Of a stretch of 12,600 nucleotides of DNA, positions 1 through 12,600 are shown piece after piece. This DNA is from Candidatus Thorarchaeota archaeon (GTDB lineage Archaea > Asgardarchaeota > Thorarchaeia > Thorarchaeales > Thorarchaeaceae). Position 1 is the stretch's first letter. Every line of letters starts with the position of its first letter. A program made the position numbers and the translations under genes. The DNA lies in the NCBI GenBank assembly GCA_046482545.1, contig JAWOEX010000017.1, positions 1 to 12,600 of the forward strand, read 5' to 3'. The notes under the pieces were generated by a model. It was not told where the DNA came from and did no database searches. It was given only the letters and a program-made list of their open reading frames with translations.

Positions 1-153
1 AGTACCAGAAAAGGCGAATTGGTAGTGAAGACAATAGCCATGTACAGAACATGGTTTTACCGTTCCACAAAGCACAGCTATGAAGGTTTCTAAAGTGAAA
101 ATCAAGACAGAGCTCGATCTATTATTTATGGCCCCTTCAATGCGAAGAACAAT

Positions 154-260
154 TGAGAAATGCTGAGGATGGAGGTACTGCTTTTCTGAGGGTCCGCTCA
201 AATCTTGACAACTCTAGGTGCGCATGAGCTATATTTTCGGTCTGCTTGAAACGCTAATAT
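154..260 (+). repeat. Dispersed ~110-bp direct repeat, copy 1
   Basis: tgagaaatgctgaggatggaggtactgc...ctcaaatcttgacaactctaggtg...atattttcggtctg...cttgaaacgctaatat; aligns by eye with 2681-2793, 5848-5953 and 11039-11148. Confidence 0.95.
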
Positions 261-262
261 AG
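248..262 (+). promoter_or_regulatory. Putative archaeal BRE/TATA promoter at right end of repeat copy 1
   Basis: gaaacgctaatatag: purine-rich BRE-like segment then an AT-rich box; gctaatat ends 38 nt before the TTG at 298. Same motif and spacing in copy 2 (2793 to 2831). Confidence 0.45.
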
Positions 263-297
263 CGATAAGAATGTAGTGTAGGAAAGGGCGAACCTCA

Positions 298-2508
298 TTG
301 ATGCACGGAGTTTACGTTGTAGGAAGGAACGGAGAATTAGTGTACTCAAAGCAGCTTACAGATTCATCATCAAATGAAGAAATAGTAAATCATCTACAGC
401 ATCTGGCCGATTCTCTTCCGACAGAGAGGGAGAAGGGTCAAGTTGAATACAGCGATTTCTTAAATTACAGGGTGTACTATTTTGCTGATTCAGAGTATGT
501 TCTTTTAGTAGTAGCTGACAAAGCAGACGAGAAGAAAATAACCTCTCAGAAGACAAAGATATTCGCGGATACCTTCAGGATGGGCGGCGTTGTATCAGTT
601 TCATCGCATGAGCTTGATAGGCTCATAGATTTCTTGGAAGCACCCCCGTTGAAAGTTGCAGTTATCGGATTCGAAAACCCGAGTCTAGGAAAAGAGGCAT
701 TGTTGAACCTGCTTAGAAGTGAAATTCTGTCCCCTAAGAATGGTACAAGATGGGGAGATACAATTGAGGGGCCCTTATTACAGGAAGAAAACATCAACGT
801 AATTCTCTGGAATTTGGCTGGTCAGTCGCGGTTTAGCATTGTCTGGGGTAAGATGATTGCGAATGCTCAAGTTGTTGTTATTGTCACAGATAGTACCTTT
901 GAGAATGTTTTGAAGAGTAAGAAATTGGTTAGCCTAGCAAAAGAAAAGGTACCCAATGCAAAAATAATCGGTATTGCCAATGAACAAGACCTGTCAACCG
1001 CACTAACACCTGAAAGAATCAGCCATATACTGGATATACCCACATACGGACTCACAGAAATTGATGATTCCCAAGTCGGTCTGCAAGCTACGGAATATCG
1101 AGAGCCTCACCCCATTGCAATAGCGATTCAAGAGCATGATGAACCTTGGCTGGTGATTGGCATTATCAGCAATAGAACAGACTTCAAAGATACGTTCGAG
1201 ATTCAGAAGGCGATTATGGATAGAGCCGATGACATTGCCCATGCCATTCGTGATTCTGAGGATCCATGGGAAATAGTCAGCAATATCAGCGGTTTTGATA
1301 TTCTCAGAGAAAAACAAGAAATTCGTGAAGCAGTCCAGGAAAGGGCATCCAGTATTGCAGAAACTATCAACAAATCTAACCGACCTTGGAAAGTAGTATG
1401 GAAAATCCATTGGTGGAAAGACCTCAGGCAGAACGAGGAAATTCAGCATGCCATCGTGCAAGCCATTGCTGAGTCTAGAGAACCGTGGCGGATAGTTAGG
1501 CGGATAGACAACTGGGAGGCCATACACCAAAACAAGGATATTGGCAAGGCTCTCGCAAGAGCTCTCCATCAGTGTGAGAAACCATGGCGTGTGGTTTCCA
1601 AACTCTACTACCAAGAAGAAATCTGGAATAATCAAGACATTCGGGAAGCTATCTACGATAGAGCTCCCGATATTATCCAAGCCATCGGAAAAGCGGATGC
1701 GGAATGGGAGGAGATCAGTCAACGCTTGAACTGGGCAAAAATCGCTGGGGAAGAACGGACATACGAGGCTTTTGCACGTGCCATACGTGAGTCGGATAGG
1801 CCGTCGCCGGTACTTGAGAGAATCAACCATTGGAGGAATCTAAAGAAAACGTTGGTATTTGGTGAAGTCGATCTTTTAGAGAATCTAAAGACGGATGCGG
1901 ATGTGCAGGAGGCTATTGTGCAAGCCATCCATGAATCTGATGACGCCTTGCAGATTGCGCACGAAATCGGCGATTGGGAAGATGTCATAGGAAATACGGC
2001 CATTCACAAAGCTATTGCAGACGCTCTTCGCGCATCTGACAAACCGTGGCATTTTCTGTTTCGGATTAGTTCCTGTGAAGATCTCAGGAAGAAGGAGCCG
2101 ATTCTTCAGGCCGTTATACAAACCCTTCATGAGACTTCCGAGCCGGCGTGGGTTATTGGTGCTTTGAGTCAGTGGAAAGAGTTTGGAAACACAGAAACGC
2201 TTCGAGAAGCTGCGAAAGGCAGAATCCCTGATATTGCTGAAGAAATTCGTGGACCTAAATATCCAAGTTGGGTTCTCGTTCATATGCGACATTGGGCTGA
2301 TCTTCACAAGCGGGATGATATTGATTACGAAGTCATTGGAAACTGGCGACCAGCAGACATGTTCGAGGAGATTGCAGGTTGTAGGAAGTCCTATTTCTAC
2401 TTCCAAATGCTCATGTCAATCGATTTTATCCGGGAGAACGAACTAATCAAAGACGCCTTCAGAAAACGAGGGTTGTATGATTACTTCTACAAAGGGAGCT
2501 CTAAGTAA
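298..2508 (+). CDS. Longin-like domain + degenerate Arf/Ras-like small GTPase domain + C-terminal alpha-helical repeat protein
   Basis: 736-aa ORF (TTG at 298 or ATG at 301). N-terminus GVYVVGRNGELVYSKQL...YRVYYFADSEYVLLVVAD follows a longin-like pattern (inferred). GTPase scaffold LKVAVIG..GK, LWNLAGQSRF, VVVIVTDST, IGIANEQDL, then about 12 repeats containing AIxES..PW. Confidence 0.85.
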   Translation: MMHGVYVVGRNGELVYSKQLTDSSSNEEIVNHLQHLADSLPTEREKGQVEYSDFLNYRVYYFADSEYVLLVVADKADEKKITSQKTKIFADTFRMGGVVSVSSHELDRLIDFLEAPPLKVAVIGFENPSLGKEALLNLLRSEILSPKNGTRWGDTIEGPLLQEENINVILWNLAGQSRFSIVWGKMIANAQVVVIVTDSTFENVLKSKKLVSLAKEKVPNAKIIGIANEQDLSTALTPERISHILDIPTYGLTEIDDSQVGLQATEYREPHPIAIAIQEHDEPWLVIGIISNRTDFKDTFEIQKAIMDRADDIAHAIRDSEDPWEIVSNISGFDILREKQEIREAVQERASSIAETINKSNRPWKVVWKIHWWKDLRQNEEIQHAIVQAIAESREPWRIVRRIDNWEAIHQNKDIGKALARALHQCEKPWRVVSKLYYQEEIWNNQDIREAIYDRAPDIIQAIGKADAEWEEISQRLNWAKIAGEERTYEAFARAIRESDRPSPVLERINHWRNLKKTLVFGEVDLLENLKTDADVQEAIVQAIHESDDALQIAHEIGDWEDVIGNTAIHKAIADALRASDKPWHFLFRISSCEDLRKKEPILQAVIQTLHETSEPAWVIGALSQWKEFGNTETLREAAKGRIPDIAEEIRGPKYPSWVLVHMRHWADLHKRDDIDYEVIGNWRPADMFEEIAGCRKSYFYFQMLMSIDFIRENELIKDAFRKRGLYDYFYKGSSK
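1114..2505 (+). repeat. Intragenic protein-level tandem repeats, 33-aa unit with 40-aa variants, about 12 copies
   Basis: e.g. IVQAIAESREPWRIVRRIDNWEAIHQNKDIGKA, IADALRASDKPWHFLFRISSCEDLRKKEPILQA, IAETINKSNRPWKVVWKIHWWKDLRQNEEIQHA; longer units add a 7-aa IxDRAxD-like segment. Confidence 0.9.
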
Positions 2509-2680
2509 AAGGGGCCTTACACTTAATGAGAGAGGATAATCTCATGAATTCACCAAATCCCGTGAGAAGAATTATCATGCCTATCAAAAAATGAGTGGCA
2601 AGTTCTAATGGGATGCAGAAGCAATTACATCACAGTGCATCAGCTCTTCTCAAGAATTACAGTGTTAAAACAAAACTAAC

Positions 2681-2793
2681 TGAGAAATGCTGAGTATGGA
2701 GGTATATGTTTTCTGAGGTCTGACCCAAATCTTGGGAACTCCAGGTACTGCACGAGCTACATTTTCGGTCTGGTCGCCTTGAAAGGCTAATAT
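2681..2793 (+). repeat. Dispersed ~110-bp direct repeat, copy 2 (most diverged core)
   Basis: tgagaaatgctgagtatggaggta...cccaaatcttgggaactccaggtactgcacgagctacattttcggtctggtcgccttgaaaggctaatat. Confidence 0.93.
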
Positions 2794-2830
2794 GTCGGAA
2801 TACGTAGGAGAATGCGGAGGGAGAAGCGAG

Positions 2831-3076
2831 TTGATACGCGGAGTCTATATCGAGGGGAAGGGACTCTCTTACTCAAGGGAATATGGGGAATCACCGCTAC
2901 AGGGTGATTGTCCTCATACCAGTGGAATCCGGAAACAAATGACGCAACGTACTAGACAAGGCATGAACGAAGTTCTGATCTTCACGAAGCTCTGGGAGGA
3001 ATTTCAGGGAGAGGTCCAGCTGTCGACTGCGTATGACATTTGGATACTTCCCATCAGTATGCTTGCTGAGATATAG
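2831..3076 (+). pseudogene. Decayed remnant of a longin-like gene paralogous to the 5' end of 298..2508
   Basis: ttgatacgcggagtctatatcgaggggaag versus ttgatgcacggagtttacgttgtaggaagg at 298; (M)IRGVYIEGKGLSYSREY versus (M)MHGVYVVGRNGELVYSKQL; similarity lost after about 20 codons. Confidence 0.6.
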
Positions 3077-3113
3077 CTTTTTTTGGGTAAAAGAAAAAAG
3101 AAAAAATTAATAA
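3077..3113. promoter_or_regulatory. Oligo-T tract (possible terminator) followed by A-tract and TATA-like box
   Basis: T7 at 3078-3084 right after the TAG at 3074-3076; then aaaagaaaaaagaaaaaattaataa. Confidence 0.35.
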
Positions 3114-3260
3114 CCAATTAGTATAGTAACTAGCTCAGACCGGAGTAGTAGGTGAGGATGTTTTGTTGAACATCGAAAAGGATGGTTGCATTGATTATCT
3201 GTTATTCATCCTCAGCTTCAATACTATTCGGGCATGTGTTATGTAAGAAGGTTAAGACAG

Positions 3261-5142
3261 ATGGAATCACGAAGAAGAAGAATCTTCGTTGTCTTGCTGC
3301 TAATTACCGTTTTGGTAGGATTAGGGGGAAGTCATTACTTCATTCAAACAGTTCACGGTTTGTCGTGGTATGGTTGGAGTTCGAAACTTGTTGGAGATAT
3401 CTCAGAGAGTCATATATCTGATTACTGGACTGTCGCCAGCTCTCCAAAATCTGGATATGAGAATTATCTCTGGTCGAATTGGCATGACGTTGTCGACAGT
3501 GAACACGATTACTGGAGTAATAATGACAAAGAGATGGTCTTCAGCACGTACTCCAGTAGTTCCACCACGGTGGGGCACATCGAGTTCAAATCAAAAGCCT
3601 CCATTCAAGATACTGAGAAACTAATATTCAAAGGAAGGTTGGGGGCTAGATTCACATATTCTGGTGTGAGGACTTTTGGCTGGGCTCAGATATATGACAT
3701 AACTTCTCAGGAAGTGGTTGAAAGTGTTAGTATCAAATCAGGAACGAACGCAAACACATGGAAATGGGAGACTTTCTCTAAGAGCATATCTCTAAACAAA
3801 AATCATCAATATATTATCAGGCTGAAAGCTAAAGATGCATGGATTCAACAGAAAGTCGAAATAGCATGGGAATGTGCAGAAGTCTGGTTCCATGGTCAAG
3901 ATTCGGATTACGGTGTCCCACTTCAACATGGCACGCACACCTGGCGATATGAATGGAGAGGACTTGAATACTGGGCAATGTATGAGTGCCGGGTTAGTTC
4001 TGATGTTGTGTTCCATTCGACACCTATCGAAGATATGTTAAGGGATCATCGTCCTTATGTATTGAATGATTTGAAACCTTTGTACAGCCAAGGCGACCCC
4101 ACCGGATGGGATCCTTGTTATCTTCATGAGTTCCGTAGCGATCCCTTCTACAAGCTAGAAGGCGATGAGTGGTATTCCACTGATTTTCCCGGAAGTATTG
4201 GTTATACTGATTCTTGTGAAACGGAGGAATTAGATGATGGCTATGAGGAGATTGAGGTCTACACACGTAATCCAGACCTATTTGTTTCTGGTCGCCTATT
4301 ATGTGTCCATTCGTTACACCGTGCATGAAACAGGATCAGTAGATGTAACTCTCGAAAATGAACTGGGCAACGAGGATGACAATAAAGCAGGTTTGTCTCC
4401 TCCGGCCTATCCCGTTGCAGGGATTCCAATCGTGACTAACACATATAGTCATGATCAAAAATCATATAGAGTATGGCCACTATATTCCCTAGCTTCATCT
4501 AGTCCGAACCACCAATACACACAACCATCGTTGAACGCCTCCTATGATAGTAGGGGGAATTCTATCAAGCTCGTGGAGAATCACCAGCTATTCAATGTGT
4601 TTCTTATTGGTAGGTACCCAGACTATCTAAAAGCCTATGTTCAACTAAAGATTGAAAGTAAGGAAGATTTGAGTAAATTCATATCAGATAAACGAAAGAT
4701 TGCTAATAACGCTTATAGTAAACTGGCCAAAGAGTCCAATGTACCTGCAACAATAACCTTCAATGGTATTAAGACCGTTGAGGATACTTTAGATCTGGTC
4801 GAAAACTTCGACTTAGACCTCATTCGGTTCAGATTCACAGCTAGGAACAATGACGGACACATAATTAGAGGTCAAGGAAAACCCTGCGGACCGGATTTAG
4901 TCCCACTTGAAACCCTCTACAGCTTCATTGGAAGCCACAAGCTTGAAGGAATACAATCCATTGATGTAAGGGCAACTCCATCAGTCATAGAACAGATCTC
5001 CGGGAGTGGAAAAGTAGCATCTGTGGATTTCTCAGCATTGTGCGCTATTCTCAACGCGAATATAGACGTTGGTGACTTCAATGAAGTAGTCCTCTACGTG
5101 GAGGATGCCTCATGGTACCTCAACCATGCACAGCTAGAATGA
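3261..5142 (+). pseudogene. Secreted/membrane-anchored hypothetical protein split by one frameshift near 4290-4297 (ORFs 3234..4328 and 4234..5142)
   Basis: ATG at 3261 gives MESRRRRIFVVLLLITVLVGLGG (basic + hydrophobic signal/anchor). The two ORFs overlap in a +1 frame relation and join naturally as ...EIEVYTRNPDLFVSG/(VA)YYVSIRYTVHETGSVDV...; may be an assembly error. Confidence 0.65.
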
Positions 5143-5170
5143 AATGAAAGAGAAGTGAATGGGAACATAG

Positions 5171-5854
5171 ATGGAGTCATCAGAAATAGTATTTCGGGAC
5201 TGGAAAAGGCGAGAAAATCAAGTTCTCAGGCGATATCCATTATTTGTTTTGGCATATTGGATTTTGTTGGTGGCCATATTTTACATTCTCCCCCTTCTTG
5301 AAGGAATTCTGGGGAGCAACTCGTACATTCTCGGTATTTTAATGCTATCCCCATTCCTCTTAATTACATTATCAACCAACATCGTATGGTCTCATGAAGC
5401 GTTCGGAACAGCTGCAAATAGCTCGAATTTCAGGGCCAAAAGAGTGTTGCAAGGGGCGTTGAGTTTGGGTATACTGGGTGCAATGATTGCTTCCATTGGA
5501 CTTGGTATCTTGCCACTCACGCCTTCGTCTATGTACAGTATCCGCCTATATATTCTCGGATTCCTGTCTTTTGCCGTCGTCCTGATACCAGTATTCCTGA
5601 CTACAGCTTTGTTATCTGATAATCCTGCCAGATTCCTGAAGGACTGTGTCAAACCTCCGTTGTCTTGGCTGGTATATCCTTGTATCTGGCTCATCTATGC
5701 TGTTCTGCAGCTGTATGGTTTCTTCTTCTCAATCATGCATCCCATGTTATCAGTTGTCTGGGTTATTCCCATAGCCTTGTTGCTACCAATTCAAGTCATG
5801 ATCTTGCCGTATTTCGCCGCACAATCAAGGTACCAAAACAAACTAGTATGCTGA
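5171..5854 (+). CDS. Hypothetical polytopic membrane protein (about 6 TM)
   Basis: 227-aa ORF with repeated hydrophobic segments, 28 nt downstream of the previous gene; TGA stop lies within repeat copy 3. Confidence 0.8.
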   Translation: MESSEIVFRDWKRRENQVLRRYPLFVLAYWILLVAIFYILPLLEGILGSNSYILGILMLSPFLLITLSTNIVWSHEAFGTAANSSNFRAKRVLQGALSLGILGAMIASIGLGILPLTPSSMYSIRLYILGFLSFAVVLIPVFLTTALLSDNPARFLKDCVKPPLSWLVYPCIWLIYAVLQLYGFFFSIMHPMLSVVWVIPIALLLPIQVMILPYFAAQSRYQNKLVC

Positions 5855-5953
5855 GGATGGAGGTACTGCTTCTGTGAGGTTCCGACTCAAATCTTGACAA
5901 CTCTAGGTGTTGCACGAGTCATATTTTCGGTCCGCTCGCCTCGGACATTAGTA
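5848..5953 (+). repeat. Dispersed ~110-bp direct repeat, copy 3
   Basis: atgctgaggatggaggtactgcttctgtgaggttccgactcaaatcttgacaactctaggtgttgcacgagtcatattttcggtccgctcgcctcggacattagta; shares an exact 33-nt run with copy 4. Confidence 0.95.
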
Positions 5954-6300
5954 TCTATCAAACTAAGGAGGAATAAAGAAGCCAAGTAACGGAGCTAATT
6001 TTGATGACAACACCCGACCCATAAAATATTAATCAGGAGTTGAAAAACCAAAGAAACGACGTAGAAACTAGAAAGATAGAATTCAATGAGTACTTGATTT
6101 CGCAGATAAACTGCATTCAGTACAATTTCGCATTCTATCAATCATCTTCGTAAGCATAGCACATCTTGCCAACGCATTCTCCTGATTCGTATAAAGATAT
6201 ATTAGAGATTACAATAAAGGGTTAATGTGGTTTGGAGAGGCTTGTAAGGCAATTGTGAAGGCATAATTTCCAGCATGTTGATTCACCACGAAGTGACAAT

Positions 6301-6909
6301 ATGAATAAGAGGAATATTGGATTGGTAATTATAGTTCTAGCCGTAGTCCTTTCAATGACCCCACAACTAGTTTTTGCCGGTTCAGGTCAGATGAGCAGTA
6401 ACTATGATGACGGGGGACATTGGGCACAATTTGGGAGTTCTGCACAAGATTGGCCCTACTACGAGAAGGTGGGGGTCTGGTCTCATGGTTTGGGATTCCA
6501 AACCGGCGGTGGTGCGTGGGTTGGTGCAGTCGATGAAGATATATCGGGTAGCCATAGTTTCACAATGACAGCGGATATCAGACTCTATGCATTTGTGGAA
6601 GCAGATGGTATTGGAAGTACGGCGCTGGTAGAAGTGTGGTTTGTGATTCGAGATGCGGATACCAAGAATGAGCTTTGGAAAGCAAAAGTTTGGTCCTTTA
6701 GTAGGATGAATTTTGAGTATTATACGTTTTCCGGGACAATATCGGAGTTGAATCCTTCGAGCTTTTCGATTGATAGTCCCAGTGACGATTACCTATTCTG
6801 TGTGGAGTTTAGAGGATATACATCATTCAATGGTCGTGTCTGTAAGAATGGCGACAAGCCAGATCAAAAGGCAATATTATACGTTGACAAGATAACCTGG
6901 CAGTGGTAA
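6301..6909 (+). CDS. Hypothetical secreted protein, Gly/aromatic-rich, probably beta-rich
   Basis: 202-aa ORF; signal peptide MNKRNIGLVIIVLAVVLSMTPQLVFA; no C-terminal anchor. Confidence 0.85.
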   Translation: MNKRNIGLVIIVLAVVLSMTPQLVFAGSGQMSSNYDDGGHWAQFGSSAQDWPYYEKVGVWSHGLGFQTGGGAWVGAVDEDISGSHSFTMTADIRLYAFVEADGIGSTALVEVWFVIRDADTKNELWKAKVWSFSRMNFEYYTFSGTISELNPSSFSIDSPSDDYLFCVEFRGYTSFNGRVCKNGDKPDQKAILYVDKITWQW

Positions 6910-6975
6910 CGGAAGAACCAAATCCAAATAGATGGGCAAAGTATTGAGGATGAAACAGACAGGTTGAGTTTATCT

Positions 6976-7029
6976 ATCGTGGAATGGAGAGAGGGCACAA
7001 TCTCTCTCGATTCCACGATTTTCTTTTTC
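6976..7029 (+). terminator. Strong hairpin followed by T-tract (intrinsic-terminator-like)
   Basis: atcgtggaat-g-gagagag (6976-6993) / loop ggcacaat / ctctctc-g-attccacgat (7002-7019): 17 bp with one G-G mismatch, then tttctttttc. Confidence 0.75.
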
Positions 7030-7320
7030 AAAAAAGTGGTATATTGAAATTAAAAAGGCACAAGAAATAGAAAATGTAGTCCAAACGAAAAGATAGGAAA
7101 ACATCCCGCAATTCTAAATCGGAAGAATATCCATAATAAAACATTCATGGTGCTATCCAGGTGGAGATACTAAAGCAGATGGTATGGGAACTATGTAATT
7201 ACAGAATTAAAAATGATGGTCATGAGTTGTCTGAAATGAAAATATATGTGTTTGTATCAATATAGAGGCCCAAACTGCTTATTAGTTAGGCACAAAATGA
7301 AAATATGTAGGTGTTGGGTT

Positions 7321-8238
7321 ATGCGAAAAACAACGATATCAGTTCGGAGTTTGGTAAAAATTTTCGTTGATGTAAGAGCTCTTGACAGTATCAATTTAGA
7401 TGTCGAACCCGGGATTTTCGGTCTTATTGGACCAAATGGAGCCGGGAAGACCACACTGCTTCGGGTATTGCTTGGTCTAATCAGGTCGGACGGCGGCACT
7501 GCCAAAGTACTTGGTCTTGACATCGCAGAGAGCTCGCTTGAAATTAGGAGAAGAATCGGCGTCCTTCATGAAAAGCCTGCATATCCCAAGTCGATGCAGG
7601 TGATAGAATATATGAATAAGGTTGCCAGGATTTACCGAAGCAACACATCGGCCGAGGAGCTGCTGACAAACGTTAGTCTTGACTATGCGAAGAATAGAGA
7701 AATCGGTAATCTTTCGGCAGGTATGTATCAGCGACTGGGCATCGCCCAGGCTCTGATTGGTTCTCCCGAACTTGTGTTTCTTGATGAGCCCACATCGAAT
7801 CTGGATGTGACCGGGCGCGATGATATCATGAACCTTATTGTTAATCTTCACAACGAACGTGATATCTCCTTTTTCGTATGTTCCCACATCCTCTCCGACC
7901 TTGAACGGGTCTGCCATCAGGTCGCGTTCATAGATAAGGGGAAGATAATAGAAAAGGGTGACACCAGAGATGTCATCGAGAAGTACACATCGAATACGTT
8001 CCGCATCGTAACCTCAGATGCTGTACGGCTTATCGAAGCTGTCAAACAGATTCCCGGGGTAAAAGAACCCAGAGTATCTGGAGGGAGCTCCATCACCTTT
8101 ACTTTAGAGTTAAGGGGGATTGATGATATTCAGGCAGACATCGAGAATGTTGCAGATCCGTTGGATATCAAGCTCTATGCGGTTGAACAAGCTGGTAATC
8201 TTGAGGTCGCTTTCAAGGAGCTTGCTAAACGTGAGTAA
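7321..8238 (+). CDS. ABC transporter ATP-binding protein (ABC-2 / drug-peptide exporter type)
   Basis: Walker A GPNGAGKTT, signature LSAGMYQRLGIAQAL, Walker B LVFLDEPT, H-loop CSH; start placed at ATG 7321 (ggtg upstream) rather than 7246. Confidence 0.96.
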   Translation: MRKTTISVRSLVKIFVDVRALDSINLDVEPGIFGLIGPNGAGKTTLLRVLLGLIRSDGGTAKVLGLDIAESSLEIRRRIGVLHEKPAYPKSMQVIEYMNKVARIYRSNTSAEELLTNVSLDYAKNREIGNLSAGMYQRLGIAQALIGSPELVFLDEPTSNLDVTGRDDIMNLIVNLHNERDISFFVCSHILSDLERVCHQVAFIDKGKIIEKGDTRDVIEKYTSNTFRIVTSDAVRLIEAVKQIPGVKEPRVSGGSSITFTLELRGIDDIQADIENVADPLDIKLYAVEQAGNLEVAFKELAKRE

Positions 8239-9037
8239 GGAACACGAGAAAGTTCACCCGATAATCGAACTTGAATTCAAGTATACCTATCATTTTCCAA
8301 TCCTCGAAAGCATCGTGGCTATTATGTTGTTTATGGCAGCCAGCAGGGGCATAGCTGTTGGCAACGCGTCTGTGGGGTTAGAGCTCAGTTCAGGTCCCAT
8401 GTGGGATGGCTCTCAACTGATCGAACGATACTACGCATTCTTGGAAGGAGGGGCACTTGCGTACGCCATGGCTCTTTCAAGCTTGGTCTCAGTCTTTGCC
8501 CTGTTGATTCCCGCCTTAACTGCTTTCAGCCTGGCACGAAGCTTCGAAGACGGAACACTGCAGACCCTTCTCAGCTATCCACTAAGCCGCTCTCGTATCC
8601 TCCTGACAAAAGTTGCTATGATACTGCTTCTAACCTGTATTCCTGCTACGGTGCTATCTCTTGCCGCAGTTTACATCTACATCCCTGGCGGAATGCAATT
8701 TCTTCCTTTTCTTGCTCTTAGTGTAGCGTTCTCGGTATTCGTACTTGTCGTAACTTCAGTAGGTATACTGATTTCTCTCATTTCAAAACGGACCATGGCC
8801 AGTGCTGCTTCAGGGATGCTAGGATGGACTGGGGTTCTCGCCATCGTCAATATGGATATCGTTCCGGAGTCGATTAAGAGGGTCATAAACCCAGTAAGAA
8901 TCATTACAGAAGCGATTAGAGGGGAAGCGAACACCCTTCTGACATGGGAGATTGCTGGCTCACTGTTGGGGTCGTTCCTAGTCGGCATAGCAATCCTTGT
9001 TCTGAGCATGCTGGTTTTTGAAAGAATGGAGGTGTAA
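8231..9037 (+). CDS. ABC-2 family permease subunit 1
   Basis: GTG at 8231 overlaps the ATPase 3' end; multiple TM helices; motif ARSFEDGTLQTLLSYPLSRSRILLTK typical of ABC-2 permeases; ends FERMEV. Confidence 0.9.
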   Translation: MSKEHEKVHPIIELEFKYTYHFPILESIVAIMLFMAASRGIAVGNASVGLELSSGPMWDGSQLIERYYAFLEGGALAYAMALSSLVSVFALLIPALTAFSLARSFEDGTLQTLLSYPLSRSRILLTKVAMILLLTCIPATVLSLAAVYIYIPGGMQFLPFLALSVAFSVFVLVVTSVGILISLISKRTMASAASGMLGWTGVLAIVNMDIVPESIKRVINPVRIITEAIRGEANTLLTWEIAGSLLGSFLVGIAILVLSMLVFERMEV

Positions 9038-9039
9038 CG

Positions 9040-9564
9040 ATGGTGTCCATGCAAACCCGTGCAGGCTGGCTCATGGTAACTCTTGGCATAACCTTGCTCC
9101 TTGTCTCCTTTCTGGGGGCTGGCAGTTTCGGGCTCCATGCTTCCATAGATAGTGGGATGTACAAAGGATACCTTTTCAGAACGACTGATGCTATCTATGT
9201 ACAGGCGGAAGGGGACACCAACGAGTGCTTCTCTCTCTACATTCTTGACTCGGAGGATACTCTGATCGTTCTTGAAAATGGCTCTTTGGAACAGACAAGT
9301 CCTGTTGCCATGATGGAAAACATCACCCACTACAACGGCCGTGTTGAGCTTCCATCACCGGGGGTCTACACGATCCTTGTCACTCCATCTCAAAATAACA
9401 CAATCAGCGTCAATATAGACATCCAGAGAACAAACCCACACATGAACGCTCTAATCCCTGGTATTTTGTTCGTTGCTGGGGGTGCGATATTCTCCTACAT
9501 ACCAAGAAGAGCTGATAGGATTGAGGAGACACCTAGAGTTGAATCGACAGGAAATACAACATAG
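9040..9564 (+). CDS. Two-TM accessory membrane protein 1 with an extracellular, probably beta-sandwich, domain
   Basis: 174 aa, N- and C-terminal hydrophobic helices, 2 nt after permease stop; paralogous to 10424..10930. Confidence 0.82.
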   Translation: MVSMQTRAGWLMVTLGITLLLVSFLGAGSFGLHASIDSGMYKGYLFRTTDAIYVQAEGDTNECFSLYILDSEDTLIVLENGSLEQTSPVAMMENITHYNGRVELPSPGVYTILVTPSQNNTISVNIDIQRTNPHMNALIPGILFVAGGAIFSYIPRRADRIEETPRVESTGNTT

Positions 9565-9602
9565 CATTATCGGAAAAACAGGAGAACCCCCAGTGAGGAG
9601 AG

Positions 9603-10421
9603 ATGTGTAATATGAAGCGACCACCTGAAAACCTGCGAGAAATCTGGGAGCTGGAATTCAACCAGTTCTATTCGTTTCCGGTTGTTGAGGGAATAGTTGC
9701 GATTTTCCTTGCCATTGCATTCGCCAGTACCATTGGAATATTTGGAAGCCATATGGGGGTGTATATCGAACCGGGGCCAACATGGAATGGTACGGCAGTA
9801 ATTGAATCTGTTTCCGAATATAGACGGACGGTTACAGCATCAGCGTATGCATCATCAGCTCTTGGTTTCGCCCAGATCCTAGCTTTCCTTATCCCGCTGT
9901 TCCTAGCATCCACTCTGGCAGGACGTTTTGAAGATGGCACGCTGCAAACATATTTGTCCTATCCCATTCAACGTTCCACCCTATTGATGGTCAAGGTCTC
10001 CGGGGTCATTGTTGTACTGGGAACAGTTGCAACGTTCGCTTCGCTTTCGATGATATTCCTGTTCATTCCTGGCAGCAAAGATGCCTTTTCCATATTGCTT
10101 GTAACATCTGCACTATGGGCGTTTATCATACTCCTTACGTCAGGAACCACGCTGATATCAATCGCGACCAGAAGTGGTGCTGCCACTGCAATCATAGGAA
10201 TTATCCTCTGGTACGCCGCACAAATGATTGCTGGTTCGCAGGCCACACCAAGCACAGTACGGGCTGTCCTCAACCCAATATCCCTAGCGAGTAGCTATGT
10301 CGCAGGAGGACTCGTAGTACCACAGATTACAGAGGTGTACGTCGGCATAGTCGGCGCGATGGTTGTTGGCGTCCTTGCCTTGACGGCAAGTGTCTTTCTA
10401 TTTGAGAAGGTGGAGATCTGA
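9603..10421 (+). CDS. ABC-2 family permease subunit 2
   Basis: Motif AGRFEDGTLQTYLSYPIQRSTLLMVK; ends FEKVEI; gtgaggag upstream; start may be 9612. Confidence 0.9.
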   Translation: MCNMKRPPENLREIWELEFNQFYSFPVVEGIVAIFLAIAFASTIGIFGSHMGVYIEPGPTWNGTAVIESVSEYRRTVTASAYASSALGFAQILAFLIPLFLASTLAGRFEDGTLQTYLSYPIQRSTLLMVKVSGVIVVLGTVATFASLSMIFLFIPGSKDAFSILLVTSALWAFIILLTSGTTLISIATRSGAATAIIGIILWYAAQMIAGSQATPSTVRAVLNPISLASSYVAGGLVVPQITEVYVGIVGAMVVGVLALTASVFLFEKVEI

Positions 10422-10423
10422 GG

Positions 10424-10930
10424 ATGGCGTCAGCTGCAGGAAGAATAACCAAACTGGTGACGATGATTGGAATCACCTTCTTGCTAGTCTCGTTCATCCC
10501 ATCCGGAAGTTTTGGTCCAGGTAGCTTTGTCGACTATGGTACTTACGAGGGGACAGTTTTCGGAGCCGTTGGAAATATTCACGTAAACATCTCGACCTAC
10601 AATAGCAGTGGACTTCAAGTCTATGTATTGGACTATGACGATTTGACGTCCGCATTGGAAAATGGATCTCTGGAAGGGACTGACCCACTTATGTCGATTG
10701 AAGTGCTCTCGAATTACTCCGGCATAATCGAGATTCCTCACCCCGGATTATATGCCATTCTGTTCACCCCCACATATAACGAGACTGTTTATTGGGACGT
10801 TCAAATCAGTAGGCCGCTCCCTCACACCGGTGCTTTTCATGTTGGGCTAGTTGTTACTGCATTAGGAATCGCGGGGATGATATTGCTGAAAGTGGAAGGA
10901 CATCTTCGTATTCCTGATTTGCAAAGATGA
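10424..10930 (+). CDS. Two-TM accessory membrane protein 2
   Basis: 168 aa; IGITFLLVSFIPSGSFG, LENGSLEGTDP and EIPHPGLYAILFTP match 9040..9564; 2 nt after permease stop. Confidence 0.82.
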   Translation: MASAAGRITKLVTMIGITFLLVSFIPSGSFGPGSFVDYGTYEGTVFGAVGNIHVNISTYNSSGLQVYVLDYDDLTSALENGSLEGTDPLMSIEVLSNYSGIIEIPHPGLYAILFTPTYNETVYWDVQISRPLPHTGAFHVGLVVTALGIAGMILLKVEGHLRIPDLQR

Positions 10931-11038
10931 TCTGTGAGTGCACCCAGGATACCGCCACTAATGCTAAGTAGCAGAGTTACGTATATGGCATACTGTCTTT
11001 TTCACAAAGCTACACTATCGAAAACAAAGCAAAATGAG

Positions 11039-11148
11039 TGAGAAATGCTGAAGATGGAGGTACTGCTTCTTGAGGTTCCGCTCAAATCTTGACAACTCTA
11101 GGTGTTGCACGAGCTACATTTTCGGTCTGCTCGCCTTGGACAGTAGTA
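11039..11148 (+). repeat. Dispersed ~110-bp direct repeat, copy 4
   Basis: tgagaaatgctgaagatggaggtactgcttcttgaggttccgctcaaatcttgacaactctaggtgttgcacgagctacattttcggtctgctcgccttggacagtagta; lies between convergent genes. Confidence 0.95.
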
Positions 11149-11183
11149 GCGGTGAGCTGAACACCTCGCCGGAGCTCGGGCTA

Positions 11184-12053
11184 TCATCGCTTCTTGACAT
11201 AGACAACCATAATGACCACCACTGCTCCTATTGCGGTACCAATCCCAAGAGCATGCAGCGGATGTATGCCCACAGGGGTGGTTGTTTCTGTGGTTGTTGT
11301 CGTGGTGGGATTAGCTCCGCATGGTGGCGGTGGAAGATGTTCAATTGCAACGATTGTGCCATCGAGTGAGATAGACATGATACAAAGAAGCTGTGCGAGA
11401 GAGTAAACAGGTTCGGTTGGGGATGGGTAGCATGCTATAGTGGTATTGATTTTCAAGGTTAATTCCCAGTGAGATTCATTCAGTAACACACTCGCATTAT
11501 CATGCTCGAATTCTGAAATCCCGATATCCCCCATCGCCAGAGAGTCACCAGTATAGCTGCGGTCCCACAGGAAGGGAATCAGGAGGTTATCCTCGCTGAA
11601 GGGCCTGAAACAGAAGTCTGATGATTCATTGAAAGCAAGAAGCGAGGCAATCCCGGTCTTCAGCGATTCTCGCAAATACGAACTTGAGTTGACATTAAGA
11701 TTCACGATAGTATCGAACTCACCCGTCCAATTGAACAGGAGCTGAGTGAAGTGGGTGCTGTTGAGACCTGAAAAGGCCCCATAGCCATTCAAGTTCGTGT
11801 CTAGACCGAAGAGCAATGAGTCGTTGAAAGCGTCCACGATTGGTTGATATTCATCCCAGTTTTCGGCTTGAAGTATGTAGCGTCCGAGCCCTCGACTATT
11901 CAGGTCCCAGCCGTTGAAGGTGATGGTGTTTTCTCCGACCACTAGCGTTGCGGAATTGGAAGTTGGTAGTTGGTTCGCTACTGCAGTTGTAGCCCCGAGT
12001 GACAGAACCAAGAATAGCACAAATAGGCTTATTGTGGTTCGATTCAGCTTCAT
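11184..12053 (-). CDS. C-terminally anchored cell-surface (glyco)protein
   Basis: Start placed at MKLNRTTISLFVLFLVLSLGATTAVA (signal peptide); many N-x-S/T sequons; PPPPCGANPTTTTTETTTP linker; C-terminal TM + KKR; tandem TGA TAG stops. Confidence 0.85.
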   Translation of the reverse strand: MKLNRTTISLFVLFLVLSLGATTAVANQLPTSNSATLVVGENTITFNGWDLNSRGLGRYILQAENWDEYQPIVDAFNDSLLFGLDTNLNGYGAFSGLNSTHFTQLLFNWTGEFDTIVNLNVNSSSYLRESLKTGIASLLAFNESSDFCFRPFSEDNLLIPFLWDRSYTGDSLAMGDIGISEFEHDNASVLLNESHWELTLKINTTIACYPSPTEPVYSLAQLLCIMSISLDGTIVAIEHLPPPPCGANPTTTTTTETTTPVGIHPLHALGIGTAIGAVVVIMVVYVKKR

Positions 12054-12078
12054 TTGTCTTGGTATCCCCATTATTTGC

Positions 12079-12600
12079 TCAATAATTGTTGCTCCCATCA
12101 TAATTGACGCGATGCTCGAAATCCCAATAATAGTGTAATCTTCCATCATATTCTAATTTGTCGTAATCATCATCGGAGTAATTTGCATCATCACCCTCAG
12201 CCATAATTTTTAGTGTATTCCAAGAAATGCCAACATTCTGATAGCACTGAGGATTATCGGTCACATCCCAAGTGGGATCTGCATGAATCCAGTCATAACC
12301 ATCCCAAAACTCAGCCCAAGCATGACCTTTGGAGTGTCCAGTAGTGTTAACACCAGAGGCGTATATGTATCTTGCAGGAATGCCGACAGAACGACAAAAC
12401 GATACAAAAACAATTGCGAATTCATCGCATACACCTTCCCAACCACGGTCTCTGGAATATTTGTCCGCATTGGTTGTATAAAGTGTGTATGAATCATCAA
12501 CAGGGGTCATCAGGTTATTTACACCTCCATTTAGGAATCGACCCACATCAGGAGGGAAAAAGTAATCGAAGTCATCGATGATTATTGCAGCTTGATAGTA
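12079..12600 (-). CDS. Transglutaminase-like (Cys-His-Asp) domain protein, 5' end outside the window
   Basis: GVCDEFAIVFVSFCRSVGIPARY, GHAWAEFW, WIHADPTW; the frame is open to the window edge (YYQAAIIIDDFDYFFPPDVGRF...). Confidence 0.92.
   Translation of the reverse strand, partial: YYQAAIIIDDFDYFFPPDVGRFLNGGVNNLMTPVDDSYTLYTTNADKYSRDRGWEGVCDEFAIVFVSFCRSVGIPARYIYASGVNTTGHSKGHAWAEFWDGYDWIHADPTWDVTDNPQCYQNVGISWNTLKIMAEGDDANYSDDDYDKLEYDGRLHYYWDFEHRVNYDGSNNY

Follow-up and report, generated by a model that had tools for sequence, protein, structure and literature searches.

Introduction

Several types of gene arrays have been described that grow by the addition of cassettes at a fixed place. Additive flexible genomic islands are found at the 3' ends of tRNA genes, including fGI1 of 'Ca. 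Actinomarinales' (PMC7771536) and fGI-2 of Methylophilaceae (PMC10872708). The tycheposon islands of Prochlorococcus are arranged in tandem at tRNA genes and carry site-specific integrases (10.1101/2020.12.28.424599). Sedentary chromosomal integrons and CALINs, archaeal ones included, represent another type (PMC4889954, PMC9668308). In addition, processes that involve the homologous recombination of the host have been reported in bacteria. In E. coli, donor DNA that is trimmed and then re-circularised is inserted through a single crossover that depends on RecA, with duplications of 109-950 bp, and homology-facilitated illegitimate recombination (HFIR) has been described in the same context (PMC3240628). 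In Vibrio cholerae, arrays of T6SS immunity genes correspond to sequential displacement (PMC5361080).

Here, we analysed a 12,600-nt stretch of DNA of a Thorarchaeota genome (hereafter, the window), which is best explained as a slice of an additive gene island probably located behind the single 23S rRNA gene of the host. We found no description of cassette arrays at rRNA gene ends in the literature consulted, most of it non-subscription, and a report on Asgard mobile elements (PMC11529989) makes no mention of rRNA.

Results

Repeats and gene modules of the window

A first-pass annotation of the window had indicated four copies of a ~110-bp repeat, all in the same orientation, that delimit unrelated gene modules. 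The four co-oriented copies were confirmed. Their cores start at positions 160, 2687, 5848 and 11045, with core-to-core distances of 2527, 3161 and 5197 bp, and the sequence blocks named in that annotation are invariant or nearly so across all of them. An nhmmer model built from the four copies yielded E values of 1e-31 to 1e-35, and a wider repeat model gave no match in 100 shuffled windows. The genes present in the intervals also agree with the announced module contents. However, local alignment to the end of the 23S rRNA gene showed that the repeat exceeds 110 bp and that its extent differs between copies. The features are as follows:

Repeat copy 1: 151-246 (core 160-246), minus strand; last ~8 nt of the 23S rRNA and 3' arm of the processing stem
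Module 1: 298-2508, plus strand; 736-residue protein with an Arf-like GTPase domain and C-terminal repeats
Repeat copy 2: 2639-2779, minus strand; stem arm and T-rich trailer after the last ~13 nt of the 23S rRNA
Module 2: 3234-5854, plus strand; three genes for proteins of 364, 302 and 227 residues without Pfam matches
Repeat copy 3: 5820-5953, minus strand; stem arm and trailer after the last ~25 nt of the 23S rRNA
Module 3: 6301-10930, plus strand; secreted protein, ABC ATPase, two ABC-2-type permeases and two small membrane proteins
Repeat copy 4 (the longest): 10999-11182, minus strand; ~55 nt of the 23S rRNA, stem arm and T-rich trailer
Module 4: 11184-12600, continuing into contig C13, minus strand; 321-residue membrane-anchored protein and transglutaminase-domain protein

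The 23S part of copy 4 (11124-11179) corresponds to the terminal hairpin region, and this copy extends beyond position 11148. The T-rich tail of copy 1 is a trailer variant shared by two further copies. Copy 4 is flanked by convergent genes. Copy 3 covers the stop codon of the ORF at 5171-5854, the last of module 2, which corrects the first-pass annotation of the repeat as non-coding in this place. By inspection, the GTPase domain of module 1 has an altered P-loop, and the module 2 proteins are signal-peptide-like or membrane-spanning. Genes for toxin-antitoxin systems and proteins of unknown function also occur among the array cargo. Gene order is unchanged in independent Logan assemblies of two sequencing runs, which extend across copy 2 and the ABC module.

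The repeat is the 3' end of the 23S rRNA gene and its trailer

On the minus strand, each copy of the window comprises the last 8-55 nt of the 23S rRNA followed by the 3' arm of its processing stem. The repeat is thus the 3' end of the host's own 23S rRNA gene with its trailer. Archaeal pre-23S rRNA forms a processing stem with a bulge-helix-bulge motif, normally one per rRNA gene. The element found here is the same, as it comes after the mature end of the 23S rRNA and can pair with the 5' leader, but it is present in about 32 orphan copies without an rRNA gene in front. For the four copies of the window, the predicted energy of pairing with the 5' leader of the 23S rRNA is -70 to -77 kcal/mol (-72 kcal/mol for copy 1), compared with -32 +/- 5 kcal/mol for shuffled sequences. 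An Rfam scan limited to the window gave nothing useful, its fragments of the 23S rRNA being too short, and it was through the genome that the match emerged. A match to a known Rfam family had been listed in the first-pass annotation as an outcome that would speak against its reading; this outcome was obtained in part, with RF02540 for the rRNA portion of the repeat. The proposal of a hitherto undescribed recombination site is not supported, given this identity and a boundary that is spread rather than fixed.

Other identities were considered and rejected. The four copies harbour neither the RYYYAAC nor the GTTRRRY end of attC sites on either strand, in agreement with the first-pass annotation, and no stable hairpin (folding z-scores between -1.3 and +0.5 on either strand of each copy). 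With a best arm match of 7/11, they do not resemble Xer/dif or lox-type sites, in which 11-bp inverted arms flank a spacer of 6-8 bp. Their clustered, co-oriented distribution and a best dyad of 7/11 argue against a MITE or the end of an insertion sequence. The truly dispersed elements of this genome are different sequences. No tRNA or tmRNA fragment was found.

A large array, probably behind the 23S rRNA gene

The genome of the window (G000) belongs to a Thorarchaeota family, consistent with its initial description as Asgard-like, and has a single 23S rRNA gene (C2:80561-83864). It contains about 32 partial copies of the 23S end, on eight contigs only and co-oriented on each, and some of them may belong to other strains, as contigs C17/C45 and C18/C19 branch at shared ends. 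All copies but one are on contigs that form an array of roughly 76 kb, which we infer to be joined to the 23S contig. The copies are thus clustered across the genome rather than scattered. They are 75-98% identical to the anchor and mutually different, the median distance between sites is 2.5 kb, and the orientation of the genes is unbiased (31 sense, 32 antisense).

An intact 23S rRNA gene and partial copies are found on the same contig in four other genomes (G001, G003, G005 and G085), and arrays also occur within long contigs of other genera. They are large and widespread in this one family, and they were not found downstream of the 23S rRNA gene in three complete Asgard genomes of other families. 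The conserved location, the variable content and the direct repeats that mark growth by addition correspond to an additive island. An age gradient along the G000 array was not significant (rho 0.24, P 0.2); decay with distance is seen in G005, G007 and G016, by eye only. The gene rpl37e was considered as the ancestral neighbour of the 23S rRNA gene and rejected, as G001 and G002 have a tRNA-like gene and other core genes at that place.

We determined where the copies begin relative to the 23S end. Among 60 copies of five genomes, 59 start between -71 and +44, the +44 start belonging to a copy cut by a contig end, and copies with at least 90% identity still start at positions from -66 to +16. 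The 23S-side boundary is thus spread over about 100 nt, with a sharp upstream edge near -60 to -71 in G000, G001, G002, G005 and G085 and exceptions near -195 to -207 and -134. Some copies have lost part of the stem arm. A crossover may be located at this edge, near -70, with later trimming accounting for the spread. The copies are not grouped by genome (13 label changes for G000 versus a shuffled mean of 13.1) in a tree that is built on about 130 nt and weakly supported.

Cassettes are shared with sister species

Cassettes shared with sister species are mostly 86-94% identical, compared with 73-85% for non-rRNA core DNA. They have other neighbours in those species, with breakpoints in the repeats, and the junction between cargo and 23S fragment moves with the cassette. 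Module 1 is present in G002 (85.9% nucleotide identity over 2344 bp) with the same junction and different neighbours, and the junction of copy 3 is shared with G001. Module 3 has 94.4% nucleotide identity with its counterpart in G001 and 92.1% with that in G002, at different array positions in both, and the G002 version is devoid of the secreted-protein gene. Module 4 is on the opposite side of module 3 in G001. The 227-residue protein of module 2 has a 54% homologue encoded elsewhere in G001. The comparison bears out the suggestion that modules come and go and change order between lineages, the breakpoints being located within the repeat. The Logan assembly of run SRR31818007 joins the gene of the 227-residue protein to the methyltransferase gene of contig C18 across a 35-nt identical run. 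We did not retain this alternative join as evidence, as a short-k assembler can mis-join at such a run, and the assembly of SRR31818008 breaks there.

Similar layouts at other gene ends

The same layout is found at the end of the 16S rRNA gene and at the 3' ends of the oligopeptidase F and acyl-CoA dehydrogenase genes. In the 16S array, G000 and G001 have the same cassettes in a different order, and the fragments start either in the trailer or up to 36 nt before the end of the gene. For one of these cassettes, the fragment is shorter in G000 than in G001, and therefore trimming happens. The acyl-CoA dehydrogenase locus is an empty site in G001 and G002. In G000, the front position is taken by another allele of the gene end, and two inserts now precede the displaced native trailer, i.e. 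a donor allele adjoins the anchor, the resident sequence is displaced and the junction is variable. Mixed alleles and the spread of the junctions suggest that the same pattern applies at the 23S end. A 365-residue ORF behind the 16S rRNA gene, whose tail is duplicated in the 16S array, was considered as an integrase and rejected, as it has no Pfam match and is the C-terminal part of a ~1720-residue protein. This protein is intact in G002, whereas it has an internal deletion in G001 and is truncated in G000.

Search for a dedicated machinery

The first-pass annotation had predicted a recombinase encoded elsewhere. However, three genomes of the genus, 96-99% complete, yielded no known recombinase family, and the layout also occurs at unrelated sequences. 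Thus, tyrosine recombinases (PF00589) were not found in G000, G001 and G002, and searches for serine and IS110 recombinases (PF00239, PF07508, PF02371) found none in G000. Among 320 array ORFs of 19 genomes, the recurring families include no site-specific integrase, and no family other than cargo recurs beside the arrays. Reverse transcriptases (PF00078) were not found in the genus and are present in 3/31 genomes of the family, and Cas1 was not found in G000, G002 and G005; an rRNA-targeting retroelement and a Cas1-driven array were rejected accordingly. Genes for uptake and end-joining were not found either (ComEC 0/5, Ku 0/31). Full-length DprA occurs in G000 only as cargo and was rejected as machinery. 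The TnpB-like and DDE elements of some arrays occur throughout the genome and show no link to repeat ends, and one Y1 transposase is on an unrelated contig. Scans of metagenome and viral contigs with the trailer pattern gave no match.

Discussion

The array shares with tRNA-end islands an intact RNA gene beside which cassettes are stacked with partial direct repeats between them, the displacement of old arrivals and the movement of cassettes between related taxa. In contrast, its anchor is the 23S (and 16S) end with the processing-stem arm rather than a tRNA gene, and its repeats are of 90-180 bp with variable starts, when att sites have about 20-40 nt. There are about 30 copies, and the integrases that tycheposons carry were not found here. 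The site-cassette-site layout, the co-oriented sites, their median spacing of 2.5 kb, the toxin-antitoxin and unknown cargo and the reordering between lineages are also features of integrons and CALINs. However, the repeats of the window have neither attC boxes nor a stable hairpin, IntI or any other tyrosine recombinase was not found in the genus, and the cassettes are multigene, have their own upstream regions and lie in either orientation. The E. coli and V. cholerae processes (PMC3240628, PMC5361080) have in common with this locus a conserved upstream anchor, variable junctions, a donor allele in front of a displaced resident, copies that are not closest relatives within one genome and no integrase. 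Those bacterial cases are rare events or concern one functional gene class, whereas here the cargo bears no relation to the anchor, and the anchors left behind act as reusable cassette borders. Classical HFIR deletes recipient DNA, whereas here the resident end is kept.

Judging from the sequences, the arrays probably result from homology-anchored capture by host recombination, followed by shuffling via the repeats, an action that would be integron-like without an integron. In favour of this are the identity of the repeat, the spread of its 23S-side starts, the lack of grouping of copies by genome, the identity of shared cassettes above that of core DNA, junctions that move with their cassettes, the reordered 16S array, the acyl-CoA dehydrogenase locus, the negative searches for recombinases and for recurrent non-cargo families, and the E. 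coli precedent. DNA of related Thorarchaeota carrying a 23S end, its trailer and downstream cargo would enter the cell, and RadA-type homologous recombination would anchor it on the conserved rRNA end. The far end could be joined without long homology, by circularisation and then a single crossover or by HFIR, with the joint inside the homologous stretch in the latter case. The donor trailer and cargo would thus be placed in front, and the resident end would be pushed downstream as a 5'-truncated copy. Once flanked by repeats, cargo could be inserted, deleted and reordered by ordinary recombination with no dedicated enzyme. The same process may act more weakly at the 16S end and at 3' ends of protein genes. 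The rRNA end would be a hot spot since no other anchor that adjoins a tolerant intergenic region is as well conserved. However, homologous recombination alone does not predict the sharp edge at -60 to -71, and it should favour longer homology unless long duplications are purged. That ComEC and Ku were not found, that full-length DprA occurs only as cargo and that the age gradient is not significant also speaks against it.

That edge would be accounted for by serial site-specific integration at the 23S 3' end, with a crossover at about -65 to -70, subsequent loss of the integrases and trimming of the fragments. The shorter 16S-array fragment of G000 is evidence of trimming, the layout matches tRNA-targeted tandem islands (10.1101/2020.12.28.424599), and tyrosine recombinases are present in 24/61 genomes of the family. 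We nevertheless consider such integration rather unlikely, as searches of the arrays, and of the three genomes in which they are largest, found neither an integrase nor remains of one, the 16S and protein-gene sites would need several different integrases, and the trailer pattern is unmatched in viral contigs. A nuclease- or transcription-linked break near the rRNA end, e.g. at the terminal hairpin, might instead trigger one-ended repair, in which the trailer of a donor or sister is copied and the resected end becomes linked to foreign DNA; a dedicated, as yet unrecognised protein may take part. Resection after a cut is compatible with an upstream edge that is fixed and a downstream loss that varies, the 16S fragments likewise start near the gene end or in the trailer, and the presence of large, widespread arrays in one family, with none found behind the 23S gene of the three complete Asgard genomes from other families, is also in keeping with it. 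Both the break and this mode of repair appear distinctly improbable, since no conserved candidate gene lies near the arrays and the protein-gene anchors have no known hairpin of this kind; sequence alone cannot separate this process from host recombination. More broadly, it is doubtful that Thorarchaeota possess a dedicated, hitherto unrecognised pathway of gene capture, in which rRNA genes would be cut or recombined at their terminal hairpin and processing stem, in line with the sharp edge near -65 to -70, and cassette libraries on the scale of integrons would be assembled with no known recombinase family.

That the resident trailer was duplicated on the spot and decayed, or that strain variants were mis-assembled, is very unlikely. 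The genome is a metagenome-assembled genome (MAG) with branching contigs, and one Logan contig joins two cassettes differently; but the divergence of the copies from the anchor and from each other, their lack of clustering by genome, the arrays inside long contigs of other genera and the independent assemblies across copy 2 argue against both. Finally, the copies might be kept as functional RNA elements, as terminators or alternative stem arms in read-through transcripts, with the boundaries being secondary. The stable pairing of all four window copies with the 23S leader and their T-rich tails would agree with such a role. However, conservation is what one would see if all copies had once worked as trailers in their donors, there is no orientation bias, and several copies have lost part of the stem arm, which makes this role hardly credible.

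The array represents a store of integron scale, with about 76 kb and about 30 modules on a core housekeeping sequence and no recognisable integrase, in a host lineage close to the origin of eukaryotes. The fragmentation of these MAGs behind rRNA genes is explained by the presence of a cassette array there. If host recombination suffices, cassette arrays could generally form by way of leftover gene ends and would escape the programs that look for integrons and islands, and the trailer would be a marker for Thorarchaeota accessory genes, such as those of secreted proteins, ABC exporters and toxin-antitoxin systems, in metagenomes. Comparisons of reordered cassettes and empty sites make gene exchange among Asgard archaea directly testable.

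Identity of the repeat

The four repeat copies reported by the first-pass annotation lie at the positions claimed and in one orientation, spaced by 2527, 3161 and 5197 bp, and the sequence blocks listed for them are invariant or nearly so. A model of the repeat gave no matches in 100 shuffled windows. The modules in the intervals were also borne out, as follows.

Core from 160, minus strand: copy 1, with ~8 nt of 23S sequence; then module 1, an Arf-like GTPase-domain protein
Core from 2687, minus strand: copy 2, with ~13 nt of 23S sequence; then module 2, three genes without a Pfam match
Core from 5848, minus strand: copy 3, with ~25 nt of 23S sequence; then module 3, a secreted protein and an ABC exporter
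Core from 11045, minus strand: copy 4, with ~55 nt of 23S sequence; then module 4, which includes a transglutaminase domain

As annotated, the four copies have no attC end motif; stable hairpins and Xer-type dyads are also absent from them. A genome search of G000, to which the window belongs, returned ~32 copies (E <0.05), clustered on few contigs and co-oriented within each: C13, C17 (the window), C18, C19, C45, the end of C32, and one on C31. An additional full-length match at the end of C2 runs into the single 23S rRNA gene (C2:80561-83864; Rfam RF02540). All copies map to C2:83805-83991, which covers the 23S terminus (final 0-60 nt) and at most 127 nt of trailer. The core conserved among the copies represents the 3' arm of the stem at which pre-23S rRNA is processed: its computed pairing with the 23S 5' leader amounts to -75.7 kcal/mol, compared with -32 +/- 5 for shuffles, in a duplex with two 3-nt bulges flanking a short helix. 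For the four copies of the window, pairing with the leader comes to -70 to -77 kcal/mol. The repeat, previously proposed as a possibly undescribed recombination site, is thus the end of a host gene with its trailer.

Several unrelated cassettes (window 11180-11210; C45:321, C19:12939, C32:36762) end in a KKR-type stop exactly at the 23S-fragment junction, which suggests swaps among membrane-anchored genes at that point.

Assembly and distribution of the 23S arrays

Contig-end overlaps give the order C32, C17, C13, with either C18 or C19 next; C45 forms another branch from C32, and the total is ~76 kb. The breaks and branches are caused by three cassettes whose starts are near-identical (96% and 93%; window 1-244, C45:4120-4362 and C13:1282-1527), and because of the branching part of the copies may belong to strain variants. 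None of the array contigs overlaps C2; we infer linkage to the 23S gene from the repeat sequence and from relatives G001, G003, G005 and G085, in which the gene and copies share a contig. All genomes compared are MAGs. At C2:1-404, an unrelated open frame is found and there is no match to the 16S piece of C33, probably a local mis-assembly.

Of the 36 other genomes of the family, 30 gave a match to the 23S-end portion of the query, as opposed to 0 of 24 genomes from outside the family; where a genome gave a single match, this was mostly the 23S gene itself. Named records bearing the same trailer are Candidatus Thorarchaeota. Arrays with at least two extra copies occur in G001 and G002 (the sister species of G000), G003, G005, G016, G021 and G085, with a weak case in G007; the copies of each lineage carry that lineage's own trailer. 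Only one extra copy is present in G022, G025, G026, G031 and G083, and none was found within the 9-17 kb behind the 23S gene in G009, G012, G015, G034, G037 or three complete Asgard genomes of other families. In G001, several small copy groups adjoin core genes distant from the rRNA gene, and hence rearrangement can split an array. The 23S gene of G005 harbours a group I intron (L018:18054-18384).

Arrays at other gene ends

Array formation is not specific to 23S. Behind the 16S gene of G000 (C2:1495-32930; L027, L028), there are six copies of the 16S trailer and of the tail of the gene that follows; in G001, the cassettes of this array recur in a different order, with breakpoints within repeats. 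A third array of three copies lies behind the 3' end of the oligopeptidase F gene, from C27:59105-59601 to C3 and C31 (L131, L036, L015). On its continuation, C31, lies a 23S-trailer copy that is truncated and accompanied by its cassette, indicating that cassettes may pass from one hot spot to another.

The 3' end of an acyl-CoA dehydrogenase gene is duplicated around two inserts in G000 (C26:256122-260800; L145), a site that is empty in G001 and G002. The G000 gene ends in a different allele, followed by the two inserts and then by the native trailer with ~8 nt of gene end. Here the resident allele has been displaced, and the comparison indicates that incoming DNA carries its own copy of the anchor, the gene end duplicated at the borders. 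Smaller direct duplications, either of intergenic DNA or of the ends of genes, surround short inserts, one of them with PIN genes, at C38:289-2491, C28:8945-10839, C9:55451-56741, C12:125014-127025 and C38:66237-67867. At the position of the C9 duplication, G001 has an ABC module bounded by 23S repeats.

In several genera of Thorarchaeota (L132-L135, L129-L130), a ~1720-aa protein of unassigned family is encoded convergently to the 16S gene, and its paralogues adjoin TnpB-like elements in G000.

Movement and content of the cassettes

Module 1 is also found in G002, with an identical junction to the 23S fragment and different neighbours. Module 3 has kept its downstream junction in G001 and its upstream trailer in G002. 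Reordering, which the first-pass annotation had proposed to look for between strains, was confirmed between species, as modules 3 and 4 are in reversed order in G000 and G001. Cassettes common to species are mostly 86-94% identical (except for two pieces, with 79% and 82%), compared with 73-85% for non-rRNA core DNA, which points to exchange later than species divergence. In a weak tree, repeat copies of the three species are not sorted by genome (the label changes 13 times for G000, against a mean of 13.1 after shuffling), as would be expected if each copy had a separate donor. Among the cargo are toxin-antitoxin pairs of the PIN and nucleotidyltransferase-HepT types, as well as peptidases, a transporter, DprA and an IS transposase; 31 cassette genes are oriented one way and 32 the other.

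Search for a recombinase and possible mechanism

The recombinase supposed to be encoded elsewhere did not materialize among known families in genomes of the genus. Our searches found no tyrosine recombinases in its three genomes, no large serine recombinases or IS110 enzymes in five array-bearing genomes, no resolvase-type serine recombinase in G000, no reverse transcriptase in the genus and no Cas1 in G000, G002 and G005. ComEC (0/5) and Ku (0/31) were not found either. The 320 ORFs behind 23S genes in 19 genomes clustered into cargo families only, with no conserved engine gene among them.

Dispersed ~1.9-kb elements occur across G000 (e.g. C20:228500-230456, C23:122316-124205, C28:133365-135325), and their 545-560-aa proteins resemble a Cas12f/TnpB-domain protein of G031. 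G000 also has several dozen related ~590-bp non-coding elements, and a ~150-bp element is present in 17 copies. In G031 (L020:1-1980), a TnpB-like gene ends ~190 bp from a 23S fragment starting near -110 to -134, a position from which this fragment could be a candidate guide for the adjacent protein.

The 23S-side breakpoints of 60 copies, counted from a point 4 nt beyond the Rfam 23S end, range from -71 to +44, with one of the 60 at -198. They vary even among copies of at least 90% identity, and 23S fragments are longer in G021 and G031. The sequence comparisons lead us to favour, with some reserve, a mechanism based on host homologous recombination, which would anchor donor DNA on a conserved gene end; the far end would be joined without long homology, and the residual repeats would then permit cassette insertion, loss and shuffling through ordinary crossovers. 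There is a precedent in E. coli, where donor DNA that has been trimmed and re-circularised is integrated through a single, RecA-dependent crossover, leaving duplications of 109-950 bp (PMC3240628); for the immunity-gene arrays of Vibrio, a similar model of anchoring and displacement has been put forward (PMC5361080). Homologous recombination does not account for the sharp edge of the breakpoints near -65 to -70, which could reflect purging of long duplications. That the edge is the mark of an integrase since lost, with later trimming, seems unlikely to us, and a preferred break site appears less probable still.

Relation to known systems

The array works like an integron but fails integron tests (PMC4889954, PMC9668308). 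It looks similar to additive islands at tRNA ends (PMC7771536, PMC10872708, 10.1101/2020.12.28.424599); however, tycheposons have an integrase, unlike the Thorarchaeota array. No published description of rRNA-end cassette arrays was found in the literature searched, which does not prove that none exists. We file the array as an additive genomic island anchored at an rRNA end, with no integrase found and on the scale of an integron. The present analysis adds the size of the array in the genus, its reordering across species, the comparison with the empty site and the finding that the ends of protein genes are affected as well.
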